A stretch of 60,366 bases of DNA, the filler included, from Hausera hauseri (lineage: Eukaryota), in the NCBI GenBank assembly GCA_046269625.1. It is 9 parts of 9 records of this genome, joined end to end, with 100 filler letters (N's around TTAATTAATTAA, not from the genome) between each part and the next. Parts side by side here need not be neighbours in the genome. Positions count along the whole stretch, not along the records: positions 34,886 to 39,156 come from JBJURY010665441.1; 8 more parts are not named here. The stretch is one strand, 5' to 3'. The notes under the pieces were generated by a model. That model ran no database searches and was not told where the DNA came from. It worked only from the letters and a program-made list of their open reading frames with translations. The position numbers and the translations under genes are program-made. Of this stretch, positions 6,900 to 58,685 are shown piece by piece (position 1 is the stretch's first letter; each line of letters starts with the position of its first letter).

Positions 6900-7355
6900 T
6901 TACATAAATGCGTCTTCACCCAGGCCTTTCCAAGAGTCATTAGCCAATCTTGTAATATCTGAAACTGAAATCAGCTTTCTGTCTGAATTATAAATATCTA
7001 CATTCTGCCGGATTGTTTTGCATTGACTGCAACTATTCAAGCCCAACTTTATAAAACAGTTTAGGCACTGGTGATGTTGCTTGAAGCAGGCAACCACTGA
7101 ATATTCTACAACGGGAGACCAGCAAACGACACATCCATTATCTGGTAGCTTCTTTAATCTTGTTATCGAGCAGGATTTGATGCTGAGTCCATCTGGAGTG
7201 TAAATTGTGCATCTTCTGTTTGCATTGCGACACACTGGACATGTTGGACTCTGTTGAAACCAATCGACGATACAATTAAGGCAGTGATGGTGTCTGCATT
7301 TATGCAAACGGACATTGAAGCCAGTGATAGTTTCTAAGCAGATTGAACAACTCAT
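6900..7355 (-). CDS. Intronless double RING-finger protein (putative E3 ligase)
   Basis: CSIC..CRHHHCLNC..DW..CPVC (C3HC4) followed by a second, degenerate CVVC..C..HHQCLNC..CSQC. ATG at 7355. Confidence 0.8.
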   Translation of the reverse strand: MSCSICLETITGFNVRLHKCRHHHCLNCIVDWFQQSPTCPVCRNANRRCTIYTPDGLSIKSCSITRLKKLPDNGCVVCWSPVVEYSVVACFKQHHQCLNCFIKLGLNSCSQCKTIRQNVDIYNSDRKLISVSDITRLANDSWKGLGEDAFM

Positions 7356-11993: not shown

Positions 11994-12713
11994 TGTTATA
12001 TATTGGGGTGTCCCTTATACAACTCCCACCATACAACAATAATTAAACTTGAAATTAAATCGCTACTAAGCAGGTAATGTCTAAACGTTCTCGTCTAGAC
12101 AGAGTGTGCCTTATCTTATTTGAAGAATTCAATAGTAGTGCAGACACTCTCTTGCGGTCCTGTGCAATTTATCAGATTCTACTCTTACCTATGTAATTTA
12201 CACTTGAGTTTAAAACTTAGGTAACCTTTAAACACTCTTAATGAGCGGTGTGAAACTATATGAAGATTTTAATACACCCATATATATTCAACAAAAAATA
12301 ACAGTACCAGTTAGGCTAATGACAAGCAGAAATGGATATCGTCAATATTTCAAGTAACTTCGCTTCTGTCTTGGAATTTCAGCTTCCAGTAATTGACACT
12401 TTATAACTGTGCCCGTGACTGAAATGCCTCCTCTCTCAACATTCGCTTCAGTATTTATACTATTTGCTTTTCCATATACGACTAATTAATTGCAATTTAT
12501 GTTCATTTCAATTAGATTTAGAGAATAATAATGGATTATTTCATTGCTTTTCTCACAAATTTCAATTACGGTAAGCTATTTAATGTCTACGAGTCTATTC
12601 AAAATCTAAATCAATTCCGTCTTAATTAATTTACAGCTGTTCAATTTCGCTATATTCATTTTTCAGCGATTTAATTATCAACTAATTAATTATTGTCTGT
12701 TCACTTTATAACA
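11994..12713 (-). repeat. 3' LTR of Gypsy family B
   Basis: On the minus strand begins TGTTATAAAG (12713) and ends TAAGGGACACCCCAATATATAACA (11994); TGTTATA/TATAACA inverted termini. Confidence 0.75.
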
Positions 12714-15024
12714 TTTCTCGTCAGGAGAGTTGACGCCTATGCTTGGTTGTCTGAGGAGATCCAGTCTACGCCGGAGGTGTCTTCTGCTTTTTAGATTGTC
12801 TAAAGGTTCGTTTTCTATAGCGTAGCTAGTGGTGGGTTGGATCTGAATTGTGCGATTATAAGTGCCATCCGAATAATATCTAAGTCCGGCGACTTCTGCA
12901 CGGCACACTGGTCACGTAGTTTTACCGTTTTTTAACGTTCATACTTCTAAGCATTCGAGGTAATACTTATATTCTACGTAGGTCTTTTCGTATAAATCGT
13001 TATTTATTTGTCACAAGATAGATTTCGATTGGGAAATACGCACTGTGATGCATCTCTGGAAGAACTGGTCGATGCTACGTCGCTAGGTTCCTGTCTTGGT
13101 CGTCATCGTGATACTTACCGTTCTAAAGAATAAACAATAAGGATTAATCCTGTAACAAAGTACTGTTTTGAAATAAAACCAATTCTTTGTTAGATGGTAC
13201 AATAACCCGATCCGTCGCTGTCACGTTATTTCATCATAGGTTTTATCTTGGAGCTGCAGTACCATTAATTCGCTTGCTTTGATTTTGTGGCACTTATAAT
13301 GACAATTTTTGGCAACTAATCGAAAGATCGCAATTAACATAATGAGAACAAACGTTGATATTCAGATAATCGATAAGATTGATAGGGTCGTCAATCGCCT
13401 TGATGTTTGTGCAATGACTGGGGTTGTAGTTTTGTTGTCTATGTTTTTATATATATGCTATTCGGCGTGAACTTCATCTGAAGTACGCAATGTGATTGTT
13501 TGATTTCGCTTGTCTATTTCTCATACTTCTATTACATAATTTGCCTGTGGATTTAATAAATTACACTGATAAGTGTTTTAAGTAATGTTACAATTTGCTT
13601 TTTATACGTTGCTCGACAGCTTATATGTATATCATACTTTACTACTTCTTCTACAGAGAACACAATTTTAGATCGATAGACGGAATATTTAACAGGTATA
13701 TTTTCTAATTCTCTATCGGGCATTTTTCCCCATGTAACAGTTTCCGTAACAGTACTAACTTGAGCGGCTGGCCTTCTGGTTGTCGTCTCTGCTAGAATCT
13801 TCCATATTCTATTCTTTGTGTAATAAGTTCGCAACCAAATGCTTGATTCATTTGGTCATACGTGGTATAGGTCAAATCTTATCATGAATTCCCGGTTTAC
13901 CGGCAATTTACAACACGGGTGCTGCGTTCCATAATTAACACATCTGTATTCTATCTTCGGGTTTGTCCGTTTATTGCTTCGAAAGTGTCGCTGATTTCCT
14001 GCCGAAAAGTTAGTCCTATTCTAACATTTATTTGAATGCATTGTGTATCCTTATTTACTGAGATCCTCCTGATATTTTCCTCTAATATCCGTATATTTGG
14101 ATTAATACTTCGGATTATGTCGTTTGTCTTAGCTTAACTTGTTTCATTCAGTTTAGGCATAATTATATTGAGCTCTGTGGGTGTGAGCTTGAATTCCACG
14201 TATATTATAGTAGGACATTAGCAATTTGTATGTGAATGTTAGTCCAAAATCTAACTTGCAACACTTCCTTTAGCTCCTTGAGGGAAATAACACGTTTTAT
14301 CACAACATCGTCTAGGTCTTTGAACAGTATTCGAAATTTTACATGGTCTTTAAGAGGTTTGTCTGCTTTAAATTAAAGGCAGGGCCTTTTCCAATACATA
14401 CCGTAAACCTTTAGTGATTTCAAATTTTGTATATCTTTTTGTTTTTCTTCATCCTCTTTGGACAGCTCGGAAATACTTTTCGGGATACATGAGGCAATTA
14501 CATACAGTGCTAAGATTATCTGCATGTACGATATAAGTCTAGCGATTATTGAGGAGGTTTTCGTTTCTCGTTGTCGTAGATTATAATGCTTATTAGGTCG
14601 TATATATGTCTCAGCGATTCTCTGTACTGATACGACTTCTTCCTTTCCATTCTTGTTAATGTACACTGTGGTAGGCATAATTTTAGTAATTTACGGGTCA
14701 ATTTTAATGATGTGCCTTTTATTGGCTACTGAGTAATGTACATAAACCCAATTTCCTTGTTATAAACATTTCTGTAGTCGCATCTGTAACACTTCTGCAA
14801 AATTTTTCTCTAAATCTTCGGGTTAGTCGTGTATGGAGTCATTCCTAAGTTTGTGGCAACACAGCTTCACGGTCATACATCATGAAGAACGGCGTAAACC
14901 CTTGGTCCATACTTATTAATTCCATTTTCACCCTGTCTATCGTCATTTCAATTTACTTCCCTCCAACAACCGTCAGTGTCTGCCTTTCTGTTTTCCTGTC
15001 AATATTTAATTCGTTACATATATT
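11994..15024 (-). mobile_element. Gypsy family B (RING-carrying) 3' part, decayed: integrase C-terminus, accessory region, RING, 3' LTR
   Basis: Integrase tail GFTPFFMMYDREAVLP (~14900). RING remnant CLEV*TLKNGKTT*PVCRAEVAGLRYY (~12690-13050). LTR end homologous to the one at 38481. Confidence 0.8.
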
Positions 15025-15124: not shown

Positions 15125-15243
15125 GGCACCTTTGCTAGGCACTTTGTGGATCGATAGTGCACAGTGTGCACTATCGACCGGCACATGTGCAAAATCGATT
15201 TATCGATTACCCCCGGGGTGGGCCAGAACCGCCATTTTCCCCA
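15125..15243 (+). repeat. Palindromic MITE-like repeat end (copy 1)
   Basis: Closely similar to 16333-16457; contains the ATCGATAGTGCACAGTGTGCACTATCGA palindrome. Confidence 0.75.
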
Positions 15244-15732
15244 TACTCATAAACCCACATCTTATTACCTGTAACAATAATTGCCTGAAATTCCTCAGGA
15301 TCTTCATAGCGGTGCAAAAGCTCTTGATAAATTGTCAATCGCCTCTGGTTGTCAAACACTGAAAGAGATTTTGGAACCTATCAGGTGCAAACCGTATTCA
15401 TCTGTAGATGGTCATGCAGGATTGAGTGAACTGCATCTGCTGAGATGACAAGGGTCTCTGCAATCGCCTTGACTTTGACCCGAGAATCATCTATCACTAT
15501 ACACTGAACAGCAAGAACACTTTGCTCTGAAATACTGGTGGTTGGCCTTCCAGTGTGTTCGTCATTTTGGAGGCTGACTCTGCCATGGAGGAATCCATGA
15601 TGCCACCGCTCCACTGTGCGTCTTGAAAGTGCTTCAGCTTGGTATACGACAACCAACTCATGGAGGATTTCATTGCTGTTTAACCACTTTTGGTGAGAAA
15701 TTTAATGACTGGCGATATTCTAACTTATCCAT
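15244..15732 (-). pseudogene. Mariner transposase N-terminal half
   Basis: MDKLEYR..IKFL, LSRRTVERW...GRPTT HTH region, *VPKSL (WVPxxL motif) and IVTGNKMWVYEY (VTGDETW motif decayed). Confidence 0.85.
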
Positions 15733-15836
15733 AATTTGAAAAAAAAATAAGAGTTTAGATAAATGCATAGTATTTAAACAAAGGTAAGCTTTAATAATGT
15801 GAAAATTCATGATAACATTTTTCTAAAGTTGCTTAA

Positions 15837-15911
15837 TACGAGGGGCATTCAAAAATTTTTGTAGACTATTGCTTTCATGGACTTGGTCAAAAACTTTTAA
15901 CGCCCTTCGTA
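15837..15911. mobile_element. Head-to-head mariner TIR pair (mini element) flanked by TA
   Basis: TACGAGGGGCATTCAAAAATTTTT ... AAAAACTTTTAACGCCCTTCGTA are inverted mariner-type termini. Confidence 0.65.
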
Positions 15912-16229
15912 TGTGCACAATGCATTGCATCACAGAAAGTTTTCCTAATTAATAGTAGTTTCAAAAAAGTAAAAATTAAAAATGCAGTATTTTGGTAATA
16001 CAAATCGATACATAAATACATATCTATTATATAAAATACAAAAATACTTCATATACACGAAGTTTTAAAATAAAATTGAACATGAAAACTTAGATATGTA
16101 ACATTGTTTGTGATACGTCATACTATGACGTGTGTGGTTTAACCTTGATAATATGTATTACATTCAATATATTCAAATTCAAAATATTTTTTAATTTTTG
16201 GGGGTATGAAGTATTTTTAAATTCAATAC

Positions 16230-16457
16230 AAGGATGTGGGGCCTTGATGTGCCCCATCAATTCGATCAATAGTGCACTGTGCTGCGATTGATAAGTGAAA
16301 AGTGCAAAAGTACCCTTAGCAATGGTGCGTAGCGGCACCGTTGCTAGGCACTTTATGGATCGATAGTGCACAGTGTGTACTATCGTTCGGCACATGTGCA
16401 AAATCGATTTATCGATTACAACCCCCTCGGGGTGGGCCAGAATTGCTATTTTCCCCC
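16230..16457 (+). repeat. Palindromic MITE-like repeat (copy 2)
   Basis: Several hairpins (TAGCAATGGTGC...GCACCGTTGCTA); right part matches 15125-15243. Left boundary approximate. Confidence 0.7.
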
Positions 16458-16928
16458 TATTTTTATGATTACCAGCTTGAATCCAAACAGCAAAGCAAAG
16501 TATGGATAATGAAAGGAAATCCTCTACCAGTAAAGTTCAAGACCACCAAGTCAGCTGGAAAAACAATGGTCACAGTTTTTTGGGATTTTAAGAGTGTTGT
16601 GTTGGTGGACTTTTTGTCACGTGGGACAACAATGATAGGCCAATATTACGCTGGATTATTGGGGTGTTTGCGAGAAGCTGTGAAGAAGGAGCGTCGTGGA
16701 AAAATAAGTCGTGGTATTCTGCTCCAACATGATAATGCACCTCCTCACACCTCCCATGTTTCATCCGCCACTGTTCATGATTGCGGTTTTGAACTTTTAC
16801 CTCACACATCCTATTCCCCAGACCTTGCCCCCAGTTACTACTATCCGTTTTCAAATCTCAAGAAAGCGTTAGGTGGAAAAAGATTTTCAGATGATAATGA
16901 ACTGAAAGCATCAACCTCATTTGATGAT
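16458..16928 (+). pseudogene. Mariner transposase C-terminal (DD34D) half
   Basis: ESKQQSKVW, KTMVTVFWD, LLQHDNAPPH and YSPDLAPSYY (third catalytic D lost). Confidence 0.9.
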
Positions 16929-19489
16929 TGTAAGATAGAATTATTCATAAAATATTTACTATAAAAGCTTTTTTAACATTTATTTCTTTCACTCTGTAAA
17001 TGAGTCTTACTTTCCTTCTTTTCTGAAGTTCCTGGTTTTCTGTTGGCTGTTTTTTGACTTATCTTTTGAGTATTAATATCCATCTTGATTGCTCCTCACA
17101 TCCCCCTCCTTTAAGTATTTCCGCAGTTTTTCCACATTTCTTTCCAGAATTGTGCCGTCCGTGTGTTGCAATACATATCGTCTGTCGTGTTTTCTCTCGA
17201 TGACTTTGTATGGCCCTTCGTATTTGTCTTTATCTTTTGCTCCTGATTCCCTCTGTATTACTATGCTTTCTCCGACCTGGTATACGCTTTTTACTGGTAC
17301 CTTTTCTGGGTTATTACCCTTTGTTGGTTCTATTGTTTTATTCTGAACCTGCCATCTTTCTCTATGTATTGTTCTTCCGAATATTATTTCTTCTGAACTT
17401 TTCCCTGTTGTTTTCTGAACTGTCGCATTTAGTGTGAATTCTATCTCTGGTAGTGTCAACTCCCAATCTGTTCGTAGTCGATCATGGAGAGTCGAACCTA
17501 TATACTCTCTAATTGTCCGGAATTGCCTTTCCACAATGCCATTGGTGTTGTGATGATACGGGCTCGAATAGTACATCTTGATGCCCATTGACGTCGTCCA
17601 ATTTTTAAATATCTTAGACTCAAATGCTTTTCCGCAGAGTGTGTGTATCTCTTTCGGTACGCCGAATTTGAGAATCCGTATTTAGCACCGTGTCTTCTAT
17701 TGTAAGTTCGCCCTGTTTTGCTATCGCCGATAGTGATATATATCTGCTAAACTGGTCTATGATGGCCAATATGTATTTTTTCTTCTTCCAGGTTTCTTTT
17801 AACGGTCCGCAAATATCAATGTAGATCTTCTCGAATGGTTCGTTTGCCGAGAGTCTCAGGGTCTCTTCCTTCGTACCCGTTGTCATGGTCTTGTTTCGCT
17901 GACATGCCTCACAGCGTCCAATCACTTCCTTGACGGTGTCTTTCATGTTTATCATGTCGTAGTTATTGATTATGTATTTTGTCACTTTTTCTATTTCGTC
18001 ATGGGATAGCATTGATAGAATTGCTTTATCATTTCTTCCTTCTTATCCGTTGGTATCCATATCTTGCCTTTTCTTGTCTTCACAATGCCATTTTCTACTA
18101 CGAATTTCCAATGCTCTTTGTTTGAGATGTCTTCTTTTATTTCTTCAATTTCTTTGCTGTTTCTTTGATATGGATATAATTCTGTCGATTCTACTGCATT
18201 TATCCTCTGAGTTTTGATCTTATGGGAGTTGGCCTCTTCGTGAGCTAACACGCATTGACTGCATGTGCCACAATTGGTTCGGGATAACATGTCGGCGTTA
18301 GCATGATCTGTTCCTTTCCTGTATTTCAGTCTTATGTCTAAACTTGATAAATAGTTTATCCAGGTTTGGAATTGCACTGTTATTGGCTTTTTTGTTTCTA
18401 ACATGAAGGTGATGGCCTTGTGATCCGTCTTTAATGTAAACCTTCTCCCATACAAGTAGTGATTAAAATGCTGACAGAAGTAATACATAGCCAGCAACTT
18501 CTTCCGTGTAATGCAATAGCCTTTTTCGTGATTATTCATTCCTTGTGATCCGTATGCAATCACTCTTTCATGCCCACTGTGTCTTTTTGTGATAATACTG
18601 TTCCAATCGTATTAAAGCTAGCATCGGTATCCAGAATAAATTCTTTTTTGAAGTCTGGGAACCCTAATATTGGTGGAGATGGCAACGCCATCTTCATTGC
18701 TTCAAATGCTTTGTTGCAAGACTCGGTCCATACCAGTTTTTTGTTGCTCAGTCCGCACATTTGTTCTAATGCCTTAGCTTTTGTGACATACCCTTGAATA
18801 AATCTCCTGTAGTAATTGCAAATTCCTAAAAAGCTTCTGAGATTTTTACGCAATTTGGTTTCTCAAATAATTTTATGGCGTCCAGCTTGGATGGATCCGC
18901 TTGTATGCTTTGTTATTCACAATATTTCCCGAGAACTTTACATCTGTTTTCAAGATGTGACATTTCTCTGGGTTTATTCTCAATCCCGCCTTTTTGATTT
19001 GATCTAGTAATTTCTCTAATATTACATAATTCTCTTTCAATGATTTCGAAAAGATCAATATATCGTCCAGGTATACTATAGTTTGTTCCATGTTTTCCAA
19101 TACTTTGGTCATCAGTTTTCGGAATGTAGCCGCTGATGCTGCTATACCAAAAGGCATCCTGTTGAAACAAAATTGTCTCCATTTAGTCGAAAAGGCTGTT
19201 TTCAACTTGGATTCTTCCTTTAGTTCGACCTGGTAATATGCGTTTCCCAGATCGATTGGTGTGAAATATCTAGCACTATATAGTTTATCCATCATTTCCA
19301 TCATGTTCGACATGGGATACGCTTGTTTTTCCGTGACGAGGTTCAAGTGTCTAAAGTCTAGACAAATTCTGACATCGTTTTTCTCTTTCTTCCAGACGCA
19401 GATCATCGGAGCATTCCAAGGTGAATTACATTTCTTGATGATATTGTTTTCCCATAGGTTTTGGATGGTCTCATCGATTTTACTTTCTA
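16929..19489 (-). mobile_element. Gypsy LTR retrotransposon (family C): frameshifted RT-RNaseH-integrase, PPT and short 3' LTR
   Basis: RT YLDD, RNaseH FILDTDAS/TDHKA, integrase YIDICGPL/AIIDQFSR, GPY. PPT AAAGGAGGGGGA at 17101-17112. LTR TGTGAG...CTTACA at 16929-17100. Confidence 0.92.
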
Positions 19490-19589: not shown

Positions 19590-22500
19590 CTGTGGTTGAG
19601 GCATCGGTTGTAAGAATAAGATCTGCCTTGGGTTTCGGATAAGCCAGTATTTCTACGGTTTTAAGATCTTCGCTTAAGTTATCAAACTTGGTTACTAAAT
19701 CAGGAGTCCAGTGGATCAACTGCTTCTTTTTTCCGGATGATAAATGCGCAAAAGGTGCTGTGAGCCAGAACAATGAGGTACGTGTTTGTGGATGAAGTGG
19801 AGTGTGCCTAAGAAGCTTCTCATTTCCGTGGTAGTCGTTGGTAGAGTTATGCACTTTAATTGTTGTAGTCGATCCGGTTGTGGAGAATGGCCGTTAAAAG
19901 TGATGGCGTGACTTAAGAAATTTACACGTTTTTGAAAGAAATGACACTTGGCAAAGTTGACTTACAAATTGCTATGATGTAATCTGTGAAAGATAATACG
20001 AAGGTGTTCTTAATGTTGTTTAACAGACGTAGAGGCAACTAGGATATCATTAATATATGGATGAGCGAAATCAAGACCTGAGAATACGGTATCAATGTGC
20101 CGTTGGAAAGTTTGAGAAGCATTACGTAAACCAAATGGCATAAAGATATATTTGTAGAGGCCAAATGGAGTAATAATAGCAATTTTTGGAATATCATCAG
20201 GTGCAACAGGAATTTGATGATATGCTTTATGCAAGTTAATTGTGGAGTATGTGTTAGTGTTGGTAAGGCTGTGCATGATGTCATTTATGAGAGGTAAAGG
20301 GTAAGCATTTAGGACTGTTAGATTATTTAACTGCCTATAATCATCTCATGGTCTGTATGTGCCATCTTTCTTCGTTACAACATGCAAAATGCGAATCCCA
20401 TGGTGATTTGGATCGTCGAATAATGCCCGCCTTTTCAAGTTCATTGAACTCAGATTCAACAGCTTTTCGTCTGCGAGGTGAAAGTGACCTTGCCTTTTGT
20501 CTAATAGGTTTTTGGTGTTCGGTGACTATGTGGTGATATGTTGTAGAATGCGGTTTGAAATTGATGTCCTTCTTAAGAGTACGGGAACAAGAAGTCTTAA
20601 TGTAGGATTTGATATCAGAACCCAACGATAAAAATGATGATGGCATATTATTATAAAGTCAGTGGCTGTAATCGATGTAGAATGATTAAATGCTTCATTA
20701 ACGATATTTGGTTCAACCGAATGTTTCAAGATTGATTTGTTTCCACTTGACGAGATTGAAAATATTGATGAAATGTTAAACGTGTTGCTGTCAACCGATG
20801 AACAGGATATCACATTGACATTTGAATGATCTGAGGAAAACAAAGTGTCCAACTGGTCGTTTGGTGAGTATCTGTTAGAATTTACAGTGAAGTTTCTGTG
20901 CAGGAGGCATTTATGCTTGCAGTCGACTAACAAATCGTATGCTGCCAAGAAATCGGAGCCTATTATGGGCGATCTGATGTTGGCTATGTGAAAATTCCAG
21001 ATAAATTTCCCTGGTAGGTTGGAGAATATGAAGGTCAGTTTTATGGTACCTACAATGTTCGAGGGTTGACCACAGGCAGTAAAGAGTGGAGGAGAGAAAA
21101 CTGTGTCAGATGTAGGAGCAAAAGACAAAGGAAGAAGTGAAAAGGCAGCTCCTGAATCGATAAGGAAGTCAATGTGTGATGTGTCTCCAAGTACAGATCA
21201 GCTTTCAACAGAAAGACTGCAGAGGCGGTGTTGAAACGGCCAGTAGTTTGAATGATATTGCCTGTACCAGAATGTGTCGTGGCATGTGGTTGCATTATTG
21301 GTTTTTTGAAACTTGTTGGTAGAAAGAGGCGGAATGGTGAGTGCGCGGAGGCGAAGAAAATGGAGAAGAACTAGTATTCCTTTTATCATGTTTACATCCT
21401 GGCACGCATGACCTAGCCTTGGACTGGTACTTTGCGTGATAGATTAAGATTGAATTGTCTACGGCATATTGTGCATCGTAGTATCGACAGCCTAAAACAC
21501 ATTTCCTTGCATCTCTGCGGAATTTGTTGTGATAGAAACACATCATTTTACCATCTCTAGATTTAGAACGAGAAGAGTGCCTGGAATAACTGCGATTGCG
21601 GGAAATACGATTGTCGCTTCCTCGGGGCACAGATAAGTCACTAAGTTGGGCTGTGATTGCAGAAATTGTTTGTTGTAGGGTGTCAAATTGTTTCTGCATC
21701 ATGTGCAGTTGTTGTGCAAATAAAGTGTTGTCTGATATTGTGTGAGCAGTTTCTGCGGCTACTGGCTGCGAGTTATTGGACTTCAGAATATCAAAACTTT
21801 TGTCTGCCAATAAGGCGAGCTTTTCGAGTGCAGTAGAGTCATTTACTACAGTAAGCAGCGCTCGGATGGAGGCTGGCAAAGATGAGAGAAAATACCGACG
21901 AAGAAGATCAGCACTGTTTATAGAAGTCACGCCTAAAGAGCTCAGTTGTGAGATGGCAGTTTTAAGGAAATCTGATGGTTTTTGATTTCTAATGGCGTGT
22001 TCATTAAAATACTTCTGGATTGTGCTGTCGATGGAAGGGTCGGTGATATGTAGAATCGATTAATACAACATATCATACGGGCTTGAAGAAGAGAGTATGT
22101 CAGCCAGATTACTGATCTGCTGCTTGATGTTAGCTGGAAGTAATAGCAGCAGACTGTTAGCTCGCAGAAAGGAATCTGTAATATGATTGGCTTTGAGCCA
22201 TTGAAAGTGAAACTGTAACCAAGTTCGGCTCGAATTTGTTTTATCTAGGAAAAAGTCTGTACAGGGAAGATTTGGAGATGTTGATGGTGTGGGGTCGACA
22301 GGACGGCGACCACACCTGGTTTTTGTTAAAATTTCGGCAGAAGGGTCAAAGTCTGATCCACCACGAATGCGAAAATGGACAGTGAGAGTCATGGAATATT
22401 TCTCGAGTGCAAAAGATGAAAGAGAATTGTAAGGTTGCAAAGTTAGACCGTTGTACATAAAATAAAAATCAGGGGAGCCGAAAAAAAAGAGGCCAATTCA

Positions 22501-27003: not shown

Positions 27004-30000
27004 AAGCAAATGGGCCAGAGGGAGCCGGCCGCTGTGGGGACCACACCAACCCCCGTGGCAAAGTGAAAGCTATAAAGGGCAAAGAAGACAGCGAGAAAAA
27101 ACCGCAAAAAGAAAAAGTGTCTGTGTCAGTCGATCTTAGTGTGGACAAGACGTTGGGTGCCTTCTAGTGATTTTTTCCTGCTATACTTGCTGAATGTGGC
27201 TCCGCATGTTTTGTTTTTATGCTGTGTTTGTTTGCAGAGGTTGAAGTTGAGGAAAAATTGTCGGATTTTGTTGTAAGTATTGTATTGTGCGAAGAGGAAT
27301 CAGAATGAAGAGAAGAAGAAGGTGAATGAAGAAGAGAGATTGTTGAAAACGGATGGTTAAAGGTATTCAAGGAGGTGTTAGAAGATGGAGAAAGGACAAA
27401 ATGTGTAGTGGCGGATAAAGGAAGAGAAGGAGAAGTAGGAGTAGAAATTGGAATTGATTTATGCGAGAGAGTGAAAGTGGAAGATGAAATAGAGGTAGTG
27501 ATAGAGAGAGGAAGAGAGATAGGGATAGAAGTAAAGAGAGGAGGAGGTTGCGAAGCGGAAGTGAAGGGGGTAAAAGACGATATGTGAGGAGGAAGGGAGA
27601 AAGAAAACGCCGAATATGAGTAAGGTGTGGAAAGAGATGCAGAAAGAGAGAGAGAAAGAAAAAACGGTGAAGAGGTACAAGGCGGAAAAAAGCAAAAAGA
27701 TGGAGAAGGTAGGTTGTTACCAGGGGATGCAGAGGTGTTGGAAAGCTTGAAGGTGCAGAATCGGATGGGGAGAAAGAGGTTGAATTGTGAGAAGAAACTG
27801 AAGTGGAAGTTTTGGAAGAAAACGTAGGGGAAAGTGGATTAAGACATTGAGCAGAGATGGAAGGTGAATTGTTGGATTGCTGCGCGTCGTATAAAGATGC
27901 TTGTGGAGAAGTGACTTCGATGGTAGATGTATCGTCGATGAAGAAGGCCGGCTTAGCGTTGTTGATGTGAACTGTTATTTTTTTGTCGTCTTTGAGAATG
28001 ATGATGTTGTGGGAGTGTAGGCAAATTACTTTGTAAGGGCCAACATACCGAGGTTGAAAAACACACGGCATTTGATTCTTTAACCAAACGAACTTGACAG
28101 TATATAAATCGTCGGGTATGTAAGGTTTATTTGCGTGTAACAATTTGCAAAATGAGTCTTTGCTGACCTCAAGGAAGTGTCTCTGTGCCGCTTGTATGGT
28201 TTCGTCTGTAGGAGTATTGTCCAGCGCAGTCATCTCGAATAATGATCTGATGGAAGTGCCAAATAATGCTTCTGCAGGTGAACAGCCTGTAGAAGTAGAT
28301 GGTGTATTCTGCCAGCCAACCAGAACGTACTGAAGGAGTGCAGTCCAACTGCGATTGGACTCAGCGATGATTTTGAGAGACTTTTTCACTATTCCGTGAA
28401 AGCGTTCGAGAAAGCCATTCGATTGGGGATGATATGGGAACGTGTAAATGTGGTTAATTCCCAATCGATTGATAAGAGCTTTAAACAGGTTAGATTCGAA
28501 CTGTGGACCTTGGTCCGAAATGATGTGGCGAGGTGATCAAAACCTGCTAATCCCGGTGCGGATGAAAACGTCTTCGATGGGTTCTGTGTTGGTGCTTCGA
28601 AGCGGAAGGACCTCTGACAATCGCGAGGAACGGTCCATCATTGTGAGGACGAAGTGATGACCGTTGTCTAAGGGTAGTGGGCCTACAAAATCAATGTGGA
28701 CGGATTTTAAACGAGACGTGCAGCGAAAATGAAATAGTGGCGGCTTTAGATGCATAGTAACTTTGTATTTTTGGCATGCCATACACTGCCTAACCCATAC
28801 CTGCACATCAGAGCGCATCAATGGCCATAATACTTGGCGTTGTAAGAGTCGAAAAGTGGCCTTGGTACCGGGGTGATTCAACGAATGGATGGTGTTGAAT
28901 GTTTCTTTTTGAAGCTATTCAGAAAGGATGACTTTAGGATAATTAGATTTGGAGGAGTCAAAGACCACACTGTCGATGGTTTTGCACGATTTAAAAGATT
29001 TAAGGATGTCAGGAGGTGGCTGGTTTTGTTGAAGTTTGGATTGAGGGGAAATTGGTGTAAAATTAATCGAGTTGACCGATCGGGACAAAAAGTCAGCTAC
29101 TAAATTGTCGACCCTGTTTAAGTGCTTAATTTCAAAATTAAATGTTGACAAATACGATATTTGCCTCTCTTGATGTGGAGAAGGCGATTTCGTGGTGAAA
29201 ATTTGAAACAAGGACTTGTGGTCCGTTTGTATTGTAAAGGTTTGTGCAGTTAGTAAATGTTTGAAGTGTTTTACGACAAGGACCATTGCAAGCAACTCTC
29301 TGTCAAAGGTGGAATATCTTTGCTCTTGTGCTGTGAATTTTCGAGAAAAGAATTCTAATGGCTCATGGGATCCATTTTTGACTTGATGGAAGACAGCACC
29401 TGCAACTGTTACGGATGCATCCGTGGTTTAGAAGAGTTCTGCATGGGAGTCAGGATTGGCCAGGATTTCCAGTTTTAGATTATCTTTGAGGTGATCGAAA
29501 GCGTTGACTACTTTGGCGGTCCATTGAATAGGCTGTTTTTTCTTGCCAGAGCTTAGTGATGCAAATGGAGCGATTAGAGTGGTGCAGTGTGGAATATACT
29601 TATAAATAAAGTGCAAGGTTCCGAGGAAAGAACGCATCTCTGTTGATGTACGTGGTAGCTGTATGTTTTTTGAGCTGTGATGCGGTCTGGCTGAAGTGAA
29701 TGTCCGGAGGAAATGCTAATAATATATCATAGGAAATTGACCTTGTGTTGAAAAAATGAGAATTTGGCGAAATTAATTTGCAAACTGTTTTGGTGCAAGC
29801 GCTAGATGATTAAACGTATGTGCTCGGAGTGTTGTTTCGAGGAAGATGATGCAATTAGGATATCATCGATATAGGGATAAGCAAAGTTTAAGCCTGAGAG
29901 AACTGTATCAATATGCCTTTGGAAGGTCTGGGAAGCTCTACGGAGTCAAAAAGGCATGAAAAGGTATTCAAAAAGGCCGAATGGTGTAATGACAGCCGTT

Positions 30001-30720: not shown

Positions 30721-31107
30721 CATAAGGCAAATAGCGTTTTGATAAATAAATTGCAATTTATCCGAGAAACTAAACAACTTGAAACAATGCCAGTTTTGGA
30801 AGAAGACGAGCAGGAATCTTCTTTCCCGGAAAATGTAATGAACTCATTAAAGAAATCCAATTTTCCCAACCACGATCCGTTTAAAAGTGAATTAGAAGTA
30901 CATCAAACAATCGAGGATGAAGATGAAATTTAGTACGAAACGTCTCGGTGTTCCGACGAAAACGTTCACAAGTTATCAGATTTGGCAGACCTGAGTCACA
31001 CATTTATTCCAGATGATGATCGAAATTATGAAACATTTAATCCTAGTGATAGGGAAAGCATTAACTTTACAAAAACAATCAGGAATCAGTGTCAATTGCC
31101 AGACAAT

Positions 31108-32033
31108 GAACTAAACATGGATAATTTAATAAGACGCCTTTTGGAAGTAAGAGGTTGTCGACAAGGAAAACAGATCGATTTATCGGAAGATGAACTGCGA
31201 GATCTATGTTTGAAAAGCAAAGACATTTTTATAAATCAAAATATTCTTTTAGAATTAGAAGCTCCAGTGAAAATTTGCGGTGTTATTCACGGTCAATATA
31301 CTGACCTTTTGAGGTTGTTTGAATATGGTGGTTTTCCACCTGATGCTAATTATCTATTTCTCGGTGATTATGTTGACAGGGGCAAGTACAATTTAGAAAC
31401 GATTAGTCCCTTGTTAGCATATAAAGTCAAATATCCCGAAAATCTCTTTCTACTATGCGGAAATCATAAAAGCGCTGCTATTAATCGAATTTATGGATTT
31501 TATGATGAATGTAAAAGACGATTCAGTATTAAACTATAGAAGACATTTGCTGATTGTTTCAATTGTCTTCCAATTGCAGCGCTGGTAAAAAAATATAATT
31601 TGCTGTCATGGAGGATTATCTCCCGATTTGCAAAAACATGGATCAATTGAAAAAGATTACACGACCGACCGATGTTCCAGATACTGGCTTATTATGTGAC
31701 GTTCTTTGGTCAGATACAGATAAAGAAACAGACACATTGGGTAAAAACGAAAGAGATTTGAGCTTTACATTTGGTGCTGAAAACGTATCAAAATTTCTCA
31801 ATCGTCATGATCTTGATGTGATCGCTCGTGCTCATCAGGTAGTTGAAGATGGTTACGAATTTTTCGCTCGTAGGCAGTTGATTACACTTTTCAGTTCTTC
31901 AAATTATTGGGGAGAATTTGATAATGCCGGTGCAATGATGATTGTTGATGGAAATTTACTCTGTTCGTTTCAGATCATCCAGCCAAGAGAAAGACGAAAT
32001 ATCAGTATCTGGTTAAACCAAATGTTGGATTAA
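31108..32033 (+). pseudogene. PP1: Intronless protein phosphatase 1 catalytic subunit pseudogene
   Basis: [18 protein letters not shown](V)[41 protein letters not shown] is changed to GVIHG, RGNHE to CGNHK, a conserved Trp is TAG at 31537, and there are frameshifts. Confidence 0.95.
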
Positions 32034-32673: not shown

Positions 32674-34785
32674 TACCATCTTTTTTGGAACCACATGTAG
32701 TGGTGAAGACAATGGGATTTTGGTCTTCTGATTATTCCTGATTTTTCCAGTTCGAAAATCTCAGCCTACACTGCCTGTCTGCGGCGAGGCGATAGCAAGC
32801 GGACCTTTGGACGGACTGGTCTTTGATGTGCTCTTACTATCTGATGGAAGGTTATTTACGTGGTACGAATGATTTGTCCTTTTGAAACAGACGTGTGCAG
32901 GAAGACGAAATATATTGCTGTAAGTCAGAGGGCAACGATGAACAGTTTTCAAATGGTGTCGATGCATCGTAACTGGATGCAGTTGAGGTATGAGTTGTAG
33001 ACGAAATGTTGTGACAAGTTGGTATTAGGTGCAGGATGTTCGTATTTAAGATGGTGTTGGCAGCTGTACAATCAGTAATAGGTGCCACGCAGTTGGTAAT
33101 ATCGTATTTGTTGCCGTAATAAAAATTTCCATATAACGAATGATTATAAAAATAATTTAAATCGGAAGTCGTTTTCTTTAGTATTGACTTGCTGGAAGCG
33201 ATCGCCCAGGTGGTCATCGAAATGCTGCTAATTTGATTAGGATTATTTCCGCTCTTTAAGGAACATCGTTTGCAGTATACAAATAAATTATAGTGGGACA
33301 GAAAGTCTAAACCCAATATAGGTGTGCGTACACTGGCTACTGTAAATTTCCAAGTGAATGTGTTTGGGAAATTCGGAAGAGTGAAGGTTAATTTAGTAAC
33401 ACCAAAAATTTGTAAAGGTTTACCGGACGCAGTGAACAGTTGTTTTTTGAAGTGAAATTGTTTTGAATGTGCTGTGTTGGTTGTAGTGAAGGGATTGCTG
33501 TGCCGGTGTCTATGAGAAAGTTAATGTTTTGCTTTGTTGGAGTGACGACTACCGCTTCCAACGTGAATACAGCAAAAGAAATGTGTCGGCTATCGTTTTG
33601 TAGGTTGTTGCTTTGCTAGAACTTGCCGTGTGTTCTAGCGGCGAAATCAGTTTTTTGTAGCTAGTGAGTTTGGCCCACTATTTTGTATGGGTTTAATAGT
33701 GTCTATTTTATTGTGCGCATTGTAGTTACAGCCAGGTATGCATTTTTGTGCTTTTGTTCCAAATTTTGAGTGATAGATGCAAACGATGTTGCTTGAATTA
33801 AAATTGGGGGAGTAAAATTTACAACCGACGCAGCATTTCTGAGCATTGTTACCAAATTTTTATGGTAGTAGCAAATAGACGACCGAGCGGGCTAGGGCGA
33901 CCGTCTTTGTCGTTGATTAAATACGTTAGGGGAAGTAGCCCTAGAAAAGCCTCGTCGAGGCAAAGTAAAACTCATTTAATTTCTCGTTTATGTTGTTAAT
34001 TGTCTTTTGCAACATTTCACTGTCTGTGCGTAATTGCGCAATTATTGCTGCAGCATTGCATTTTGTTGTTGTTAGTTTGTTGTTAATGCCTCATAGACAG
34101 TTGGTGTTGTGTGAGTGCAGCACTTCATAGGCTTTGTCTACCAGTTCGGCTAACTTTTCCAGTGCCGTGGAGTCCTCGACCACAGTTAGCAAAGCTCTTA
34201 TTTGAAGGACAATGCATTTAAAAAGTAACGACGAAGAAGTTTCCGACTATGCTCACATGTTACGCCAAGGGTATTGAGGTGAGACAAAGACGTGCGCAAA
34301 AATTCAGAGGACTTCTGTAGGCTCATGGCGTTGTCATTGAAGAACCTTTGAATAATAGAATCGATTGACGGCTCAGTGAGCTTAAGAACGGCATTATAAA
34401 GTTGAGCATATAGGTCGGTGTGCCGAAGGATGTCGATGATGTTTGTGATTTTTGTTTTTATGGAAGCAGGTAAATGAAAAAATAGGCTGTTGGCTTTGGA
34501 TAAGGGATCGACGACGTTATGTGATTGCAGCCAGAATTGATGAAGTTTTAGCCATGTTTGGGTAGAATTTTGGTTATCGAGAAATTATTCTGTGCAGGGT
34601 GAATGAGTGGGGAATTTGTGCTCTGTCGAAGTGTTTGAGGCACTTTGTTTGGGTAAGTGATAGAGATTGGTGGTTTGGTGGGTTTGTCCGTGGTATTAAT
34701 AGTGGGAGATGAATCCGTGCCACCACGGATGCGGAAATGAATGTAAAGACAGATGTTGGATGACGAAGATTGCAGAGTTCCAACG
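32674..34785 (-). mobile_element. Gypsy family A 5' part (UBL end, Gag, protease, RT start); continues at 30181
   Basis: HFRIRGG at 34719-34739; Gag homologous to 21295-22458; FLIDTG; ILGLDFL; SPLHVVPKK(DG) ends at 32674 and resumes as DGTFCPCGDY at 30181. Confidence 0.9.
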
Positions 34786-35298
34786 NNNNNNNNNNNNNNN
34801 NNNNNNNNNNNNNNNNNNNNNNNNNNNNNTTAATTAATTAANNNNNNNNNNNNNNNNNNNNNNNNNNNNNNNNNNNNNNNNNNNNTGTATAAAAGTTAGA
34901 AATTAATTTTTGGCTTCTTTCCGTTTTGCAATAACACAAGTGTCCCTACTATAATCCAAAGTAAATTGGATCTGGAATTTCTAACCCATCATGAACTAGA
35001 CTACTTTGCAAAGAACCCTAGCTTGATTTTAGGAAACTTGAAGGATTGTTTATTCCAGAGCAGCCTGTGGATTGTATTAAAGTAAACCAAATGGGAAAAG
35101 TAGTATACGTTTGATCACATGTTTGTGTTTCAGAATTGGTGTTAGAGTAGATGGTATACTTTGTGTTTTAACTGTGCCAGTATAAGTTGAATCACTCTTC
35201 TGCTTTTTCCCAATAAGTATGACCATCAAAAAGAAAAACTCTTTGCCAATGAAGTTTTAGGATGACTTTATGGTAAATGTATCTCAATGGTTGTAGAT

Positions 35299-35647
35299 TT
35301 AATTGTTGGGCTCCTGCTCCTCTAGATGGTCAGGGATGGGTAGACCGGTGAGAATTGTCAGACACTTATTCCACACATTGAAAACGGGACACACAGGCTG
35401 AACAAAGGAGACATTAAATGTGTGGAGATGCTGTGAGCCCATGGCGTCGTAGAAAGACAGATATCCAGCATCGTAATCTAGCAGGATCCCAATGCGACGA
35501 AGGTGGGGTGATGGCTCAATGGCCATCTCCTTGCTGTTATGGCGAACCACACAGGAGTTGTTGCAGCGGCAGAGCACCCAAGAGGCCGAGTTCTTTCCAA
35601 TCCACTCATGCTTTGGGGCAGACTTGTAGGCAATGCCAATAGCGTAC
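35299..35647 (-). CDS. MID1: Midline-1 (TRIM18) last exon, B30.2/SPRY C-terminus, vertebrate type
   Basis: After a polypyrimidine-CAG acceptor: (W)[30 protein letters not shown]...LLDYD...[26 protein letters not shown], nearly colinear with vertebrate MID1. Confidence 0.92.
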
Positions 35648-35701
35648 CTGTTGAGCAGAAAACAACAAAAAAACTAAGATTCAAACAAAGGGCGACAATA
35701 T

Positions 35702-37678
35702 AAGTTCAGCACTTTTAAGCTGCATGGAGAAAGCTTATCGAGAAAGGAAGTAGAATTAAGGATCGCAGCATTACCATTAAAACTAATGATGGAAATCACT
35801 TGTTAAGAAACCCCAATAGTGCTTTTGCCTCCTTTGATATACCATCAACACCTAACGGAAGATCAAATAGACCAACATTTGGGATCGTATAAACTGGTAC
35901 AAGACGGACGGAACGTCCGTATAATTGCAACAAACTACGGAAAAGGAGACGATGGAAATTTCATTCCAATTGAGGTTTCAATTAGAGATATTAACGGTGT
36001 AGAAGTTTATTCTAGACTTATCACACCTCAGAAAAGAGTAAAAGAAACATTTGCAGAAATAACGGGAATCAGGAAAGAAGACCTAACAAATGGAAGAGAT
36101 GTTCGAATAGTGGAAAAGCAGCTAAACCACTGTTTATACGGATGCATGATCGCAGGATTTAGAACCCAGAAACAAGTTGACAAACTGAAAATAAACCCTA
36201 TAAATATAGCCGGGATACGAGAATTTTGGCCTCACCCTAAGATTAAAGAGAAAATGGATAATGTAAACCGACCAATTCCTATGACCATGGCAAGACATTT
36301 TAAAGCAATGATAGAAATCATCAATCTGCAGTTGTCCGCTATTAAAAGAACCCAATATTTGCGTGGTATATACACCACGATCAAATGGGATCATCAATGG
36401 TCGGCATTGAGTCCCAAAAATAAAATTCAAAGCATTACGAACCCAAAAGAATTAAATTCTCGCCACCGAAAGTAATTTCACTCGTATTCGCCAATACGAG
36501 TTGTAGAACCCAAAAAGGATAATAATATTCAAATTACGGTATCAAACCAAGAGGATATTGCCCAACATAAATCAAGTAACGTTACATATGGATTTCAAAT
36601 ACTAATAAAAACTAAAAAAATCGAGGAAAGTTATCAAGGAACATCAACCAAAAAGCCAAAATTGAGAGATCCATCTGCAGAAAAGAAAACGAAATCAATA
36701 TTAGGATTCTTAAAGAAAAAAGAAAAAGGACCATCCCAAATTGAACAAATCAGAGAACATCCTACCGAAAGTATGCCAAAGAAACTTATGGAAGTGAATA
36801 TTCTTAAAAAGGGACAAGTAGAGAAGAAAATAACAACGATAGCAAGTTTAGAGGACACGAAAGATTATCCTAGCATCTTAATTATGGCAGAGTATGTAAG
36901 TCGTGGAAAGATCAAAGAAGTGATATTTTATATCTATACAGTGCCAGTACTAGAAATACATGAAAATGCATATGTCCAGATTGACCCCAAGTTAGGAAGA
37001 TACTTAACACCAGTATTCAGATTGTTGACAGGATCCAAGAAGGTAACCGTGCCGGTAGGTACCCAAGCTAGGATAGAAATAAAAAAACAATATAAGAAAA
37101 TGAAAATACCGGACTTAGATGCTCAACCCGTAATTGAGTGGACCTTAATAGCTGGTAATGGAGACCCACGGAAAAGTTCAATAGACCAAGATCAAAAGCA
37201 ACTGCATGGATAACTTTATAAAAACCCCAAAGGATTGTTGTTCCAAGAGATAACATTGATTACGGACTGTGATCTTGATAGCGATACCGAGAATTATTGC
37301 CCCGTATGTGAATCCAATTTGTGGCAAGGCTATGTAATTTTAGCAAATAAGAACTGTAGACATCGGCATTGTCGAGATTGTTTGGAAAAATGGACGCTGA
37401 TTAATGGAAAAATGACATGCCCAGTATGCCGAGCAGAGGCACCTCAGTTAAAATACTTTTCACGTGGCGAAAATAATCGAGTAGTCGAGATAAAAGCTCC
37501 CAATGCTTACTACTCGGAGCAGAATTCCCAAACCAGTATACGGATTAATTCCCTGAATGATTCAAAATCGGACTTACGAGAAAGACTGAATGCGCTACAA
37601 TACCCAAATTATGGCGCCACCTCTCCTGACGCAATATGCACATCCGAGGATGTCGCTCAGGGAGGAGAAATGTTGTAA
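35702..37678 (+). pseudogene. Gypsy family B accessory ORF: DEDDh-exonuclease-like domain, unknown region, C3HC4 RING
   Basis: ORFs 35819, 36662 and 37235 are in one frame separated only by single TAA codons. IEVSIRDINGVEVYSRLITP...ITGIRKEDL...V...L...GCMIAGF is ISG20/REX4-like. RING CPVC..CRHRHCRDC..W..CPVC. Confidence 0.75.
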
Positions 37679-38481
37679 ATAATGAACCATTGGTTCTTGT
37701 AGAAACGGTAATCGCTTAACTATTAATTTATGCATATTAATTATAGATTTTGCTACATTTGTCGCAAATTGTGTACTTTGCATTGAAATTATTGATTGTG
37801 AATATTGTCTGAACGTTGTTCAGTGCTAACATGTGTGATTATTAATTGTCGAGAATTATTAAACAACTGCTGGAAATCGAAAACAATTAAGTTGGTAAAC
37901 AACACCTACGCCAACGAAAATGTATATAAGGTGTAGATTTTTAAGTGAAGTTAGTTAGTGTTTCTTCGACTGTAGCGTCGAATTGTCTCAAACGAATTTG
38001 AATTGGAATAGTTAGTTTTTCTTCGACTATAGCGTCGATTTGTGTAGTTGACAATCTGCGAAGATATTCAGTCCAGCTTCGACTGTAGAGTTGATTAGTT
38101 CAGATCAATCCAGTGATTCTAGTATATCTACAACTGACATTCATTATTGACTTACGTTGTGTTACGTTGATCCGTGATTGTTTTATTATATCGTGAGTAT
38201 TATATTTTGTTTTCTAAAATCCCTCTATAGTTGCCATCGGCCCTTAAGGCTGATTTGAGTTACATTAAGTATTAAATTCACAGTAAATTATATAGGTGAC
38301 TAGAATTAATCAAACTACGCACAGGATTTGCATTCACCACATTTGCATTCACGTAAAATAGACATACTAGGCACATTCGTTTAACGATAACGTTAGACGG
38401 GATTTGCACATAGATATTTAAATTCAAGAGTAACTACGTTATATAAGGGGCGTTAGTTAAGGGCCACCCATATATATAACA
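37671..38481 (+). repeat. 3' LTR of Gypsy family B
   Basis: PPT GGGAGGAGAAA, then TGTTGTAAAT...TAAGGGCCACCCATATATATAACA; the end matches the LTR end at 11994. Confidence 0.8.
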
Positions 38482-39156
38482 AAGGGAACCGAGTTAAAAT
38501 ATAGAGATAAGATAACCAATATCAACTGGCATGAGAAGTTACAGAATTGTGAAATTTTAACTGAGGAAGAGAAGAGAATGCTAATCGAGCTATTACAAAA
38601 GAATAATGACCGATTTGCACAAAATGATTACGATTTGGGTACAATGAATGTAATACAACATATAATTAAATTAAAAGAAGGATAGGATAACCCAATCAAG
38701 AAGAGGCCATATCGAATAACATATGACAAAAAACAAGAGGCACGAAAGATAATAAAGGAGAAGAGGGAAAACAAGATTATTCGACCAAGTTGTTCTCCCT
38801 GGACGGCTCCTGTAGTAATAGTCAAGAAGAAGGATGGAACTGAGATTTTGTATAGATTATCGATCGTTAAATGAAATAACCGAAACGGACACATATCCAT
38901 TGCCAAGAATTGACGAAATATTAGACAGGCTTCATGGATCGACAATATTCTCAACGATAGATTTCCAGAAAGGTTATTGGCAAGTGGAAGTGAAGGAAGA
39001 AGATAAACCAAAAACAGCCTTTTCAATAGGAGAAGGATTGTGGGAATTTAATAGGATGCCATTCGGACTACAGAATGGACCACCAACATTCCAGAGAGGA
39101 ACGGAACTCTTATTGTTAGACGCCCCACATGCCATGATATATATTGATGATGTAAT
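38482..39156 (+). mobile_element. Gypsy pol fragment (RT) into which the family B element is nested
   Basis: SPWTAPVVIVKKKDG, RFCIDYRSLN, YPLPRIDEIL, MPFGLQNGP, YIDD; one frameshift. Confidence 0.9.
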
Positions 39157-56099: not shown

Positions 56100-58685
56100 T
56101 CTCGAAGAAACAGGCATCATACGCCGCTCCACATCACCGTGGGCATCACCATTGCACATGGTTCCAAAAAAGGACGAATCATACCGGCCTCGTGGTGACT
56201 ATAGAATGTTAAATAACGTCACCATCCATGATTCATATTCAACACCGTTAGAAACAGACATATTGCATAGTCTAAATGGTGCAGCAATATTTAGTACAAT
56301 CAATCTGGAAAGGGCATATAACCAGATCCCAGTGGCTACCGAAGACATTCCAAGAACGGCCGTAATAACGCCTTTTGGTTTGTTCGAATACCTACGCATG
56401 CCTTTTGGCTTACGGAATGCAAGTCAAACATTGCAACGCCACATAGACCAAGTCCTCATCGACATGTCTTACGCAATCCCATATATGGATGATATATTGA
56501 TTGCATCACCCGATGAAGCGACTCACAAAATACATCTCAAACATGTGTTTCATACGTTGAATGAAAACTACCTACAGTTGAACATAAACAAATGTTCATT
56601 CTTTAAAACTAAAGCCGTATTTCTCGGACTTTGGTTAACACCAAATGGTCACAATCCATTTTCTGAGCGACTAGAGACCATCAAACAAATACCGAAGCCA
56701 TGCGCAGTGACTGGACTTCGCAGCTTCTTTGGCACAATCAACTCGTGCCATCGCTACATTCCGCATTGTTCGGAAATGATGTCATCTATATCTGCTCAAA
56801 GCCAAGGACCCAAGAAATCCCAGGTAAATTGGACAGATGAGGCTGAACAGACATTTTCCAGTGCAAAAATGGCGCTTTTACACCTACTTACACTACAGTA
56901 TCCTAAACGAGATGCATCGTTTATCTTAACAACAGATGCATCCACAATCGCTGCAGGCGCCATGCTTGCTCAATCAATAGATAGCAAAAATGCTCCCATT
57001 GAATTCTTTTCCCACAAATTCAATTCGGCTGAGCAACGCTATTCAACCTTTGACCGAGAATTACTAGCCATAATCCTCAGTGTCAAACACTTCCGACATT
57101 TCCTCGAAGGAAATGTGTTCACAATCCGTACGGATCACAAACCACTCATTCACATGATGAGTATGAAGAACCCATCCCCTCGTCAAGAGCGGCACATTTC
57201 ATTTCTATCAGAATTTTCATTCCAGATAGAACACATAACTGGAAAAGACAATACAGTTGCTGACTTCTTTTCCAGAACTGGGATATCGACAATATCCTTT
57301 GACCCCATTTTCACGGAAGAGGTTCTCCGATTGAACCCTCCACATGAAGACGATGTTAAGTTCTTCAAAACAGTCGACACAAAGGATGGAATACACTACA
57401 ATACCATACTCAATGGTTGTCCACGCCCAATTCTAGCAGCAAACCTACGGAAACAGGCGTTTGACACCATTCACAACATTTATCACCCTGGATCAAAAGC
57501 CACAGCTCGCATATTGAGCAGTAGAGTTTGTTGGCCTCGCATGCTGAGCGATACAAAGCAGTGGGCAAAAGAATGTTCACTTTGCCAACAATACAAAGTC
57601 AACAAGACTATACAACCCCCAATACTACACTATCCTACTGGCTGACGGTTTGAAACCATCCACATTGACATAGTAGGACCACTTCCCAAATGTAATGGAT
57701 ATCAGTATATCCTAACCATTCTGGACCGGAAAACAAAATGGCCTGAAGCCATTCCAATCCGCCCAATAACAACGCAAAGCGTTGTGGCTATATTGCTCAA
57801 CACATGGATTTTTCGGTTCGGAGTACCCAAAAACATTATAACAGACCAAGGTACCCAATTCGAGTCAGCCATGTTTAAGCAATTAACAAAATCGCTTGGT
57901 TCAAAGCATATTCACACATCGCCTTATCACCCGCAGGCGAATGGCTTGATTGAACTATTTCATCGTACACTCAAATCATCCCTACGTACATATGCCATGA
58001 AAACAAGAATTGGCTGGAAGCCTTACCCATCATGCTACTAGGATGGAGAAACACTCCGAACACTAGCACTCATGCCTCTCCGGCACAACTATTACTTGGT
58101 GCCCACCTTACGTTCCCACAAAATCTTGTAAGCAACGAGGAAGTAACTTCAATTCCTTCTCTCAACCAAGCCCGGAAGCATTTCCTGTCAATAGACACGA
58201 ACCCTGCATTCCACAACAATCACAAGAAACCAGTCATGCCCAAGAACCTACAAGACGCATCCTTTGTCTGGCTGAAAAACCAACAAAGACACGGTTTTGA
58301 ACCGTACTATACAAACCCCTACAAGCTCATAGAAATCACTGAGCACAAGGCCAAAATACTGCGCGTCAATGAGGAACATATTGTCCACTTGTCGAATGTA
58401 AAACCCGCATTTGGCTATCACGATTCCGATACCTAAGAGCCTATCGAACAAGACATACCCAGCATGTCAGAAGTAGACAAGCTTCGACAAAACTACGACA
58501 GAATTGATCCATTCAATATGGACATTACAGTAGCCTATAACCCAACCCCAATCCAAACGGAAACACATATTATCCCAACATCCGTACTTCCGAAAACGGA
58601 ACGTACAACTATACGCAATCAAACCCCTACCGCCCTGGTATCAAGACGCACCAGGAGTGCATCCAAGATACCCCGACTCCACTAA
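56100..58685 (+). mobile_element. Gypsy (related to family A) pol: RT-RNaseH-integrase and tail ORF
   Basis: 497-aa ORF with YMDD, LTTDAS, TFDRELLA, TDHKPL, HPG..C..C; then HIDIVGPLP, ITDQGTQFES, YHPQANG. One stop and one frameshift; no LTR identified. Confidence 0.93.

Follow-up and report, generated by a model that had tools for sequence, protein, structure and literature searches.

The contig, the reading frame and its product

The window analysed here is a stretch of 60,366 nucleotides made of nine short contigs with N spacers between them. The element under study lies inside the 4.3-kb contig at positions 34886-39156. This contig has three parts (Table 1). A MID1-like exon, on the minus strand, comes first; next is an LTR element, of which only the 3′ 2.8 kb is present, and then a Ty3-like pol.

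Table 1. Features of the element under study, its flanks and the second element (positions in the window)
Feature	Position	Strand	Remark
MID1-like SPRY exon, vertebrate, with splice acceptor	about 35299-35647 (35680 at widest)	-	flank outside the element
3′ accessory reading frame, 658 codons	35702-37678	+	three internal TAA
Break 1, TAA	35804-35806	+	
Putative DEDDh/RNase T (ISG20/REX4-like) pseudo-exonuclease domain, ~residues 65-232	35894-36397	+	C-terminal limit by eye, from the ExoIII motif
Lysine-rich basic linker, 133 residues	36398-36796	+	27 K+R vs 14 D+E
Break 2, TAA	36473-36475	+	private to the studied copy
Middle region, matching no known family	36863-37210	+	predicted beta-rich, low confidence
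Break 3, TAA	37211-37213	+	between middle region and RING
C3HC4 RING finger	37298-37429	+	eight of eight ligands
Post-RING tail, through the PPT	37430-37675	+	also in the second element
Polypurine tract (PPT) AGGGAGGAGAAA	37659-37670	+	
LTR, 811 bp, TGTT...AACA	37671-38481	+	ends set by comparison with the second element
Ty3/gypsy pol (linker + RT), interrupted	38482-39156	+	outside the LTR; RT Ty3-like
LTR of second element, 720 bp, TGTT...AACA	11994-12713	-	
RING remnant plus tail of the second element, which is more decayed	12711-13060	-	at the equivalent PPT/LTR junction

The LTRs of this element and of a second, diverged element, situated in another contig of the window, both start with TGTT directly after GAGAAA. 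Their 3′ 300 bases can be aligned (score 177 versus a maximum of 64 in 200 shuffles), and the likeness stops precisely at TATATAACA, which gives the LTR ends in Table 1. The 811-bp LTR contains three 40-nt repeats (37947-38099) and, at 37923, a TATA-like site. It is not followed by a TGG primer site and a pol frame runs from the next base, thus it is likely a 3′ LTR, with the element nested in another gypsy element, and the pol sequence is likely the insertion target. As to the superfamily, for which RT phylogeny and the order PR-RT-RH-IN are the criteria, the RT of this pol is Ty3-like but is outside the LTR. The initial annotation as an LTR retrotransposon is supported by the TG...CA-ended LTR after a PPT and by the dispersed multi-copy family described below.

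The sequence abutting the element on its 5′ side (about 35299-35680, minus strand) matches the last SPRY exon of human MID1 with an E-value of 1e-61. No contig bridging the junction of this exon with the element was found among the public-run contigs. The remaining contigs of the window look invertebrate, and a protocadherin found there is only distantly like vertebrate ones. It is possible that the assembly combines sequence from two organisms and that this contig is a chimera.

A frame of about 650 codons, with three TAA codons and continuing through the PPT into the 3′ LTR, had been noted initially. This was found to be so in each respect, with 658 codons, the TAA codons at the same positions and the terminal stop inside the LTR, 5-8 bases past its start. 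The other five frames of the stretch contain 28-66 stops each. In 1000 dinucleotide shuffles, the most open frame contains 26 stops on average and 13 at the least, versus 3 in the real frame. The first 34 codons may be outside the ORF. A private divergence of approximately 3% in the studied copy would be expected to bring about 2.3 added stops, and decay would thus be enough for all three breaks. The studied copy has no Met between break 3 and the RING, and no readthrough hairpin was found 3′ of break 3 (z = −0.21).

The highest 19-residue hydropathy of the frame product is 1.37 and is situated within the first 45 residues. The frame shows no signal peptide or transmembrane anchor, and profile searches gave no env match. 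As there is no transmembrane segment, identity of the product with an env (fusion glycoprotein) was ruled out. The frame had also been assigned to the env position. Its placement at the PPT and LTR holds, but within the 4.3-kb contig there is no pol upstream, the MID1-like exon being found there instead, thus the assignment comes from the PPT and LTR only. Profile searches gave no confirmation of an integrase tail upstream of the frame. Since the contig does not include gag and pol of the element itself, a separate gene in the env position and a C-terminal extension of pol fit alike.

The N-terminal part of the product appears to be a DEDDh/RNase T-like domain, on four weaker lines that are concordant. 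In an Atlas feature search, all 30 of 30 matches carry PF00929 (RNase_T), the best at 0.94 with 193 of 256 features and a recognition of 3375, and the third is named ISG20; against this background, shuffled proteins score 0.9 in 4-10 of 100 cases. A search of 177,635 PDB sequences gave only three matches at E < 10, all DEDD nucleases and none significant (ISG20L2, E = 0.076; SDN1, 0.16; PolC exonuclease, 0.21). A PHROG DNA polymerase exonuclease family matches with an E-value of 0.005 and PolC with 0.025. There is no Pfam match for this part. These Atlas matches and the weak PDB, PHROG and PolC matches support the earlier assignment to the ISG20/REX4 type. Of the structural check proposed along with that assignment, single-sequence AlphaFold models of segments reached pLDDT values of 34 and 36, and Foldseek with one such low-confidence model gave no match at E ≤ 0.001; the sequence matches are positive, and the fold has no confirmation at the level of structure.

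The first acidic motif was correctly read as IIATNYG. The positions of the ExoI D and E correspond to I75 and T77 when the register of ISG20L2 is used, and to A76 and N78 with that of SDN1. The ExoII D corresponds to Q158 in both HMMER registers. The non-acidic residues at these positions agree with the suggestion, made at the outset, that the exonuclease may be inactive. Two bases or more would have to change in each of the aligned ExoI and ExoII codons to give a catalytic codon. The ExoIII motif, which we take to be H-x4-D and placed by eye beyond the alignments, would lie at L211/R216, three base changes away at each residue. Among the best-supported 40 of 175 family differences, none is in a catalytic-position codon. 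Because of this, and of the two or more base changes needed at each position, decay of the studied copy does not explain the catalytic loss, and we read the predicted pseudo-exonuclease state as belonging to the whole family, beyond the studied copy.

A basic linker and a middle region follow. The middle region gives Ig-like (NUP210) matches in the Atlas search (0.85, recognition 1578), which are a lead only. The C-terminal part carries the RING ligands C533-x2-C536...C552-x-H554-x2-C557-x2-C560...C573-x2-C576. Matches above the Pfam cut-offs were found for zf-RING_2 (E = 1.7e-7) and zf-C3HC4 (E = 3.5e-5), and zf-C3HC4_2 passes as well; with all eight ligands present, the annotation of a C3HC4 RING is supported. 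When the contig was shuffled 500 times, the ligand pattern never arose. The best PDB matches of the RING are solved E3 RINGs (Arkadia, RING2). RING-HC domains are sometimes scaffolds without E3 activity.

Protein searches gave no homologue of the whole ORF (lengths 361-1152), of the exonuclease segment (lengths 122-389) or of a two-row alignment of the RING and tail (lengths 271-2000), and 0 of 6 segments of the frame were present by identity in a protein collection. No full-length or intact homologue was found in protein collections, and the public runs contain no contig spanning the stretch. Five scans of viral contigs gave no usable locus, one relative being reported without a locus. Nothing relevant to the ORF was found in prokaryote genomes, plasmids and phages. 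A metagenome locus (L001) that encodes a longer RING protein was set aside, the match being confined to residues 533-579.

Copies of the family and a second element

Two public runs, X1 and X2, contain the stretch as contigs; X1 does not count as independent support, since it is possibly the source sample. In X1 there are 952 contigs on positions 35770-37250, 574 of which are less than 90% alike. Summed depth over the family is 48-2005, versus 3-7 for contigs identical to the studied copy. The element thus belongs to a multi-copy dispersed family. Over the 1481 bases of 35770-37250, the 952 X1 contigs show no indels at a share of 30% or more. At a 10% share there is one compensating indel pair in the ORF, among the best 12 of 32.

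At break 2, a depth of 1000.5 of 1005.8 (46 contigs, X1) differs from the studied copy, thus break 2 is private to that copy; X2 differs there too. Breaks 1 and 3 are absent among the best-supported 40 of 175 differences, the depth at break 3 being about 800, and therefore no single other letter reaches approximately 86% at these sites. They may be real family stops or sites with split alternatives.

Fifty-four in-frame differences were classed (39 and 15 from two comparisons), the break row and out-of-frame rows being dropped. Synonymous differences make up 1 of 24 at shares of at least 94% (23 are non-synonymous) and 6 of 20 at 85-94%. At shares below 85% they make up 8 of 10, versus an expected fraction of 0.28 (p = 0.0009); this test covers 10 automatically selected rows out of 962 and does not amount to a dN/dS estimate. 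The top share class differs from the rest in synonymous content (Fisher p = 0.0006). Changes private to one copy at family-fixed sites together with silent sites between copies are a hint of a constrained family and one decaying copy. This suggests that the ORF is under constraint in the family. Of the dN/dS check proposed initially, the outcome is the synonymous excess at variable sites, which is a hint of purifying selection and not a dN/dS value.

The second element shares the RING and tail with the first at 38% protein identity (score 164 versus a maximum of 53 in 15 shuffles). The RING-tail-PPT junctions of the two are also similar as DNA (score 82 versus a maximum of 40 in 150 shuffles). 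The exonuclease and middle region are not common to both, the upstream 1.5 kb being matched by 146 of 150 shuffles. An integrase-like tail upstream of the second element was seen by eye and was unconfirmed by profile searches. Since the second element has the RING, tail and PPT junction but an unlike upstream part, the RING cassette seems either to predate the combination with the exonuclease or to be swapped between families.

Upstream of the RING remnant (14600-12700, minus strand), the second element displays a signal-peptide-like sequence at ~14555 and a transmembrane-like sequence at ~13397. Its product may have been an env-like protein with a cytoplasmic RING, where decay is too great for a fusion to be seen.

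Known systems and possible functions

The comparisons below apply to the portions of the cited papers that were available. The Juno and Vesta LTR elements of bdelloid rotifers carry a DEDDy exonuclease ORF3 with intact catalytic residues (PMC5408684). The resemblance to the ORF under study is that an animal LTR element has taken a DEDD-fold exonuclease ORF without a transmembrane domain into its 3′ slot. However, the Juno/Vesta exonuclease is RNase D-like, DEDDy and intact, whereas here the domain appears to be of the DEDDh/RNase T kind with its catalytic residues lost and a RING after it, thus the ORF is not of the Juno/Vesta type. The word RING is absent from the main text of that paper. The giant gypsy elements Burro/GYPSM1 of planarians carry MATH/TRAF, Ubi/SUMO-like, BIR and AIR1 domains, for which meddling with the host was proposed (PMC6431247). 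They too are animal gypsy elements with ubiquitination-linked domains, but these are in or upstream of a 4,900-aa Gag-Pol, and neither an exonuclease nor a 3′ C3HC4 RING is described in the available text.

PML-1 (TRIM19 isoform 1) combines a RING with the PXL pseudo-exonuclease, which binds single-stranded RNA and DNA, G-rich strands (PMC13659232), and PML-I furthers proteasomal loss of LINE-1 ORF1p (PMC10123124). It resembles the ORF under study in having a RING and a DEDD pseudo-exonuclease on one chain. It differs in being a host restriction factor with an N-terminal RING in an RBCC and a TREX1-like nuclease with a SAM domain, and the likeness is an analogy of domain logic only. CERV is the accessory protein of Cer1, an LTR retrotransposon of C. 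elegans, and has a Cys-rich, metal-binding loop that is required for genomic RNA to be exported (PMC10309623). It is similar in these features and in acting on element RNA, but its domains are different, and neither a RING finger nor an exonuclease is described in the accessible text.

Arenavirus Z and herpesvirus ICP0 are viral RING proteins directed against host defence. The arenavirus NP exonuclease is a DEDDh domain with the same role (PMC7968707, PMC3429428). These are examples of captured DEDDh domains and RINGs used against the host but, unlike the ORF described here, they are separate proteins, with an active nuclease, and are not retroelements.

No LTR element with an exonuclease-plus-RING ORF was found in the open full-text literature; Repbase, Dfam, supplements and subscription papers may differ. 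RING or exonuclease ORFs in retrotransposons are not described in the available parts of PMC13269885, PMC13524379 and PMC7264820. A captured 3′ accessory ORF of LTR retrotransposons is a known kind, and the combination of pseudo-DEDDh and RING was not found described in the literature covered.

The anatomy of the element (frame, exonuclease-like part, RING, PPT/LTR) is very probably as given in Table 1. The exonuclease-like part and the RING form, in our judgment, one fused protein with good probability, the family frame being taken as open across breaks 1 and 3. The RING somewhat more probably than not has E3 activity. The explanation that we tentatively prefer, at clearly below even confidence, is that of an extra 3′ gene, whose dead DEDDh domain and C3HC4 RING would provide the element with a nucleic-acid-binding ubiquitin ligase. 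The dead domain and the basic linker would attach to single-stranded DNA or to RNA, in all likelihood a transcript of the element itself or an intermediate of its replication, and the RING would bring in a host E2 enzyme. Host proteins of surveillance or restriction would be the substrates, ubiquitinated on contact with the ribonucleoprotein of the element. The nearest support for this mechanism is the analogy with PML-1, and as a full account of counter-defence it is more tentative still.

The same anatomy suits nearly as well a fused protein that helps the element in its own life cycle, in RNA export, packaging or particle assembly, with the RING as a scaffold or acting on the element's proteins. 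Such roles have parallels, in the portions of the papers available, in the Cys-loop accessory protein CERV, needed to export the genomic RNA of Cer1 (PMC10309623), and in the auxiliary replication roles suggested for the DEDDy ORF3s by Rodriguez et al. (PMC5408684). However, no sequence link to CERV is seen, the RING ligand spacing is canonical and the best PDB matches are E3 ligases, and we regard a helper as possible but rather unlikely. It is improbable that two genes are involved, with break 3 as the true end of the exonuclease-like ORF and the RING and tail as a separate small gene or spliced exon. The absence of break 3 from the near-fixed differences (best 40 of 175) despite a depth of about 800 would fit this arrangement, as would the RING-tail cassette without an exonuclease in the second element, but split alternatives at break 3 would likewise escape the best 40 of 175. 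Moreover, the frame is kept over break 3, no Met is available ahead of the RING in the studied copy, and decay alone would be expected to produce two or three stops.

Host gene fragments caught near the PPT and carried as neutral cargo would account for the three stops in the studied copy, and a function is inferred only; in the available text, ORF3 variation in the rotifer genome is mostly neutral (PMC5408684). Against such cargo are the lack of common indels over 1481 bases even though 574 of 952 contigs are less than 90% alike, the synonymous excess at variable sites, the retention of the RING and tail in a second, distant family, and the failure of protein searches to find a close host homologue, which together make it quite improbable. 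Lastly, the family exonuclease could be active through shifted or substituted acidic residues, and either trim element RNA/cDNA or remove sensor-triggering nucleic acid, as the arenavirus NP exonuclease does. The rotifer DEDDy ORF3s do retain catalytic residues, as far as the accessible text goes (PMC5408684), and in the present family the catalytic codons were judged on the best 40 of 175 differences, with residues placed without a reliable model. Yet three aligned catalytic positions need at least two base changes each, the H and D of ExoIII, as placed by eye, need three each, and neighbouring private changes are visible at 94-99% share; activity is therefore very improbable.

Counter-defence of animal retrotransposons at the protein level is little documented, and a selected pseudo-nuclease and RING gene is a concrete, assayable candidate for the ubiquitin ligase reading preferred above. 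Without a counter-defence role, captured genes of the env slot would be extended to a DEDDh-type domain with a RING. The RING cassette is common to two families whose upstream parts differ. A wider and unlikely reading is that of an animal LTR lineage in which a 3′ ubiquitin-ligase cassette, made up of the conserved RING and the tail next to the PPT, can be exchanged. One family would have it attached to a dead exonuclease, which would direct it to nucleic acid, and another to a signal-peptide/transmembrane protein. Such E3s would destroy host silencing or restriction factors, mirroring PML-1 in the host and paralleling the RING antagonists of viruses, and the element would then own targeted E3 ligases.

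Other sequences in the window

An intronless ORF of 151 codons at 6903-7355 (minus strand) carries two RING-like fingers. The first finger has the C-R-H-x-H-C spacing of the element's RING and 38% identity over 45 residues. The contig is AT-rich, and the neighbouring ORFs (5926-8512) are short and begin with hydrophobic residues; this may be an insert of viral or mobile origin.

Decayed gypsy-type gag/pol fragments are found at 9980-11350, 17073-19487, 19590-22497, 27164-29427, 32852-34584 and 56100-58436. Two of these show long Ser/Pro/Thr-rich, pyrimidine-rich extensions past the integrase. Positions 15381-16964 contain what we take to be mariner-like transposase fragments, with a direct repeat of 86 nt (copies at 15125 and 16334). 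On the minus strand, 1910-2817 contains pieces of a gene with a voltage-sensor domain (Ion_trans, E = 1e-6), presumably like TPTE/VSP. A broken, intronless PP1-type phosphatase sequence at 30934-32033 (plus strand) is probably a retrocopy. The two ends of one 12.5-kb contig (39257-39424 and 51646-51799) are repeats of each other and may represent a tandem or circular assembly.
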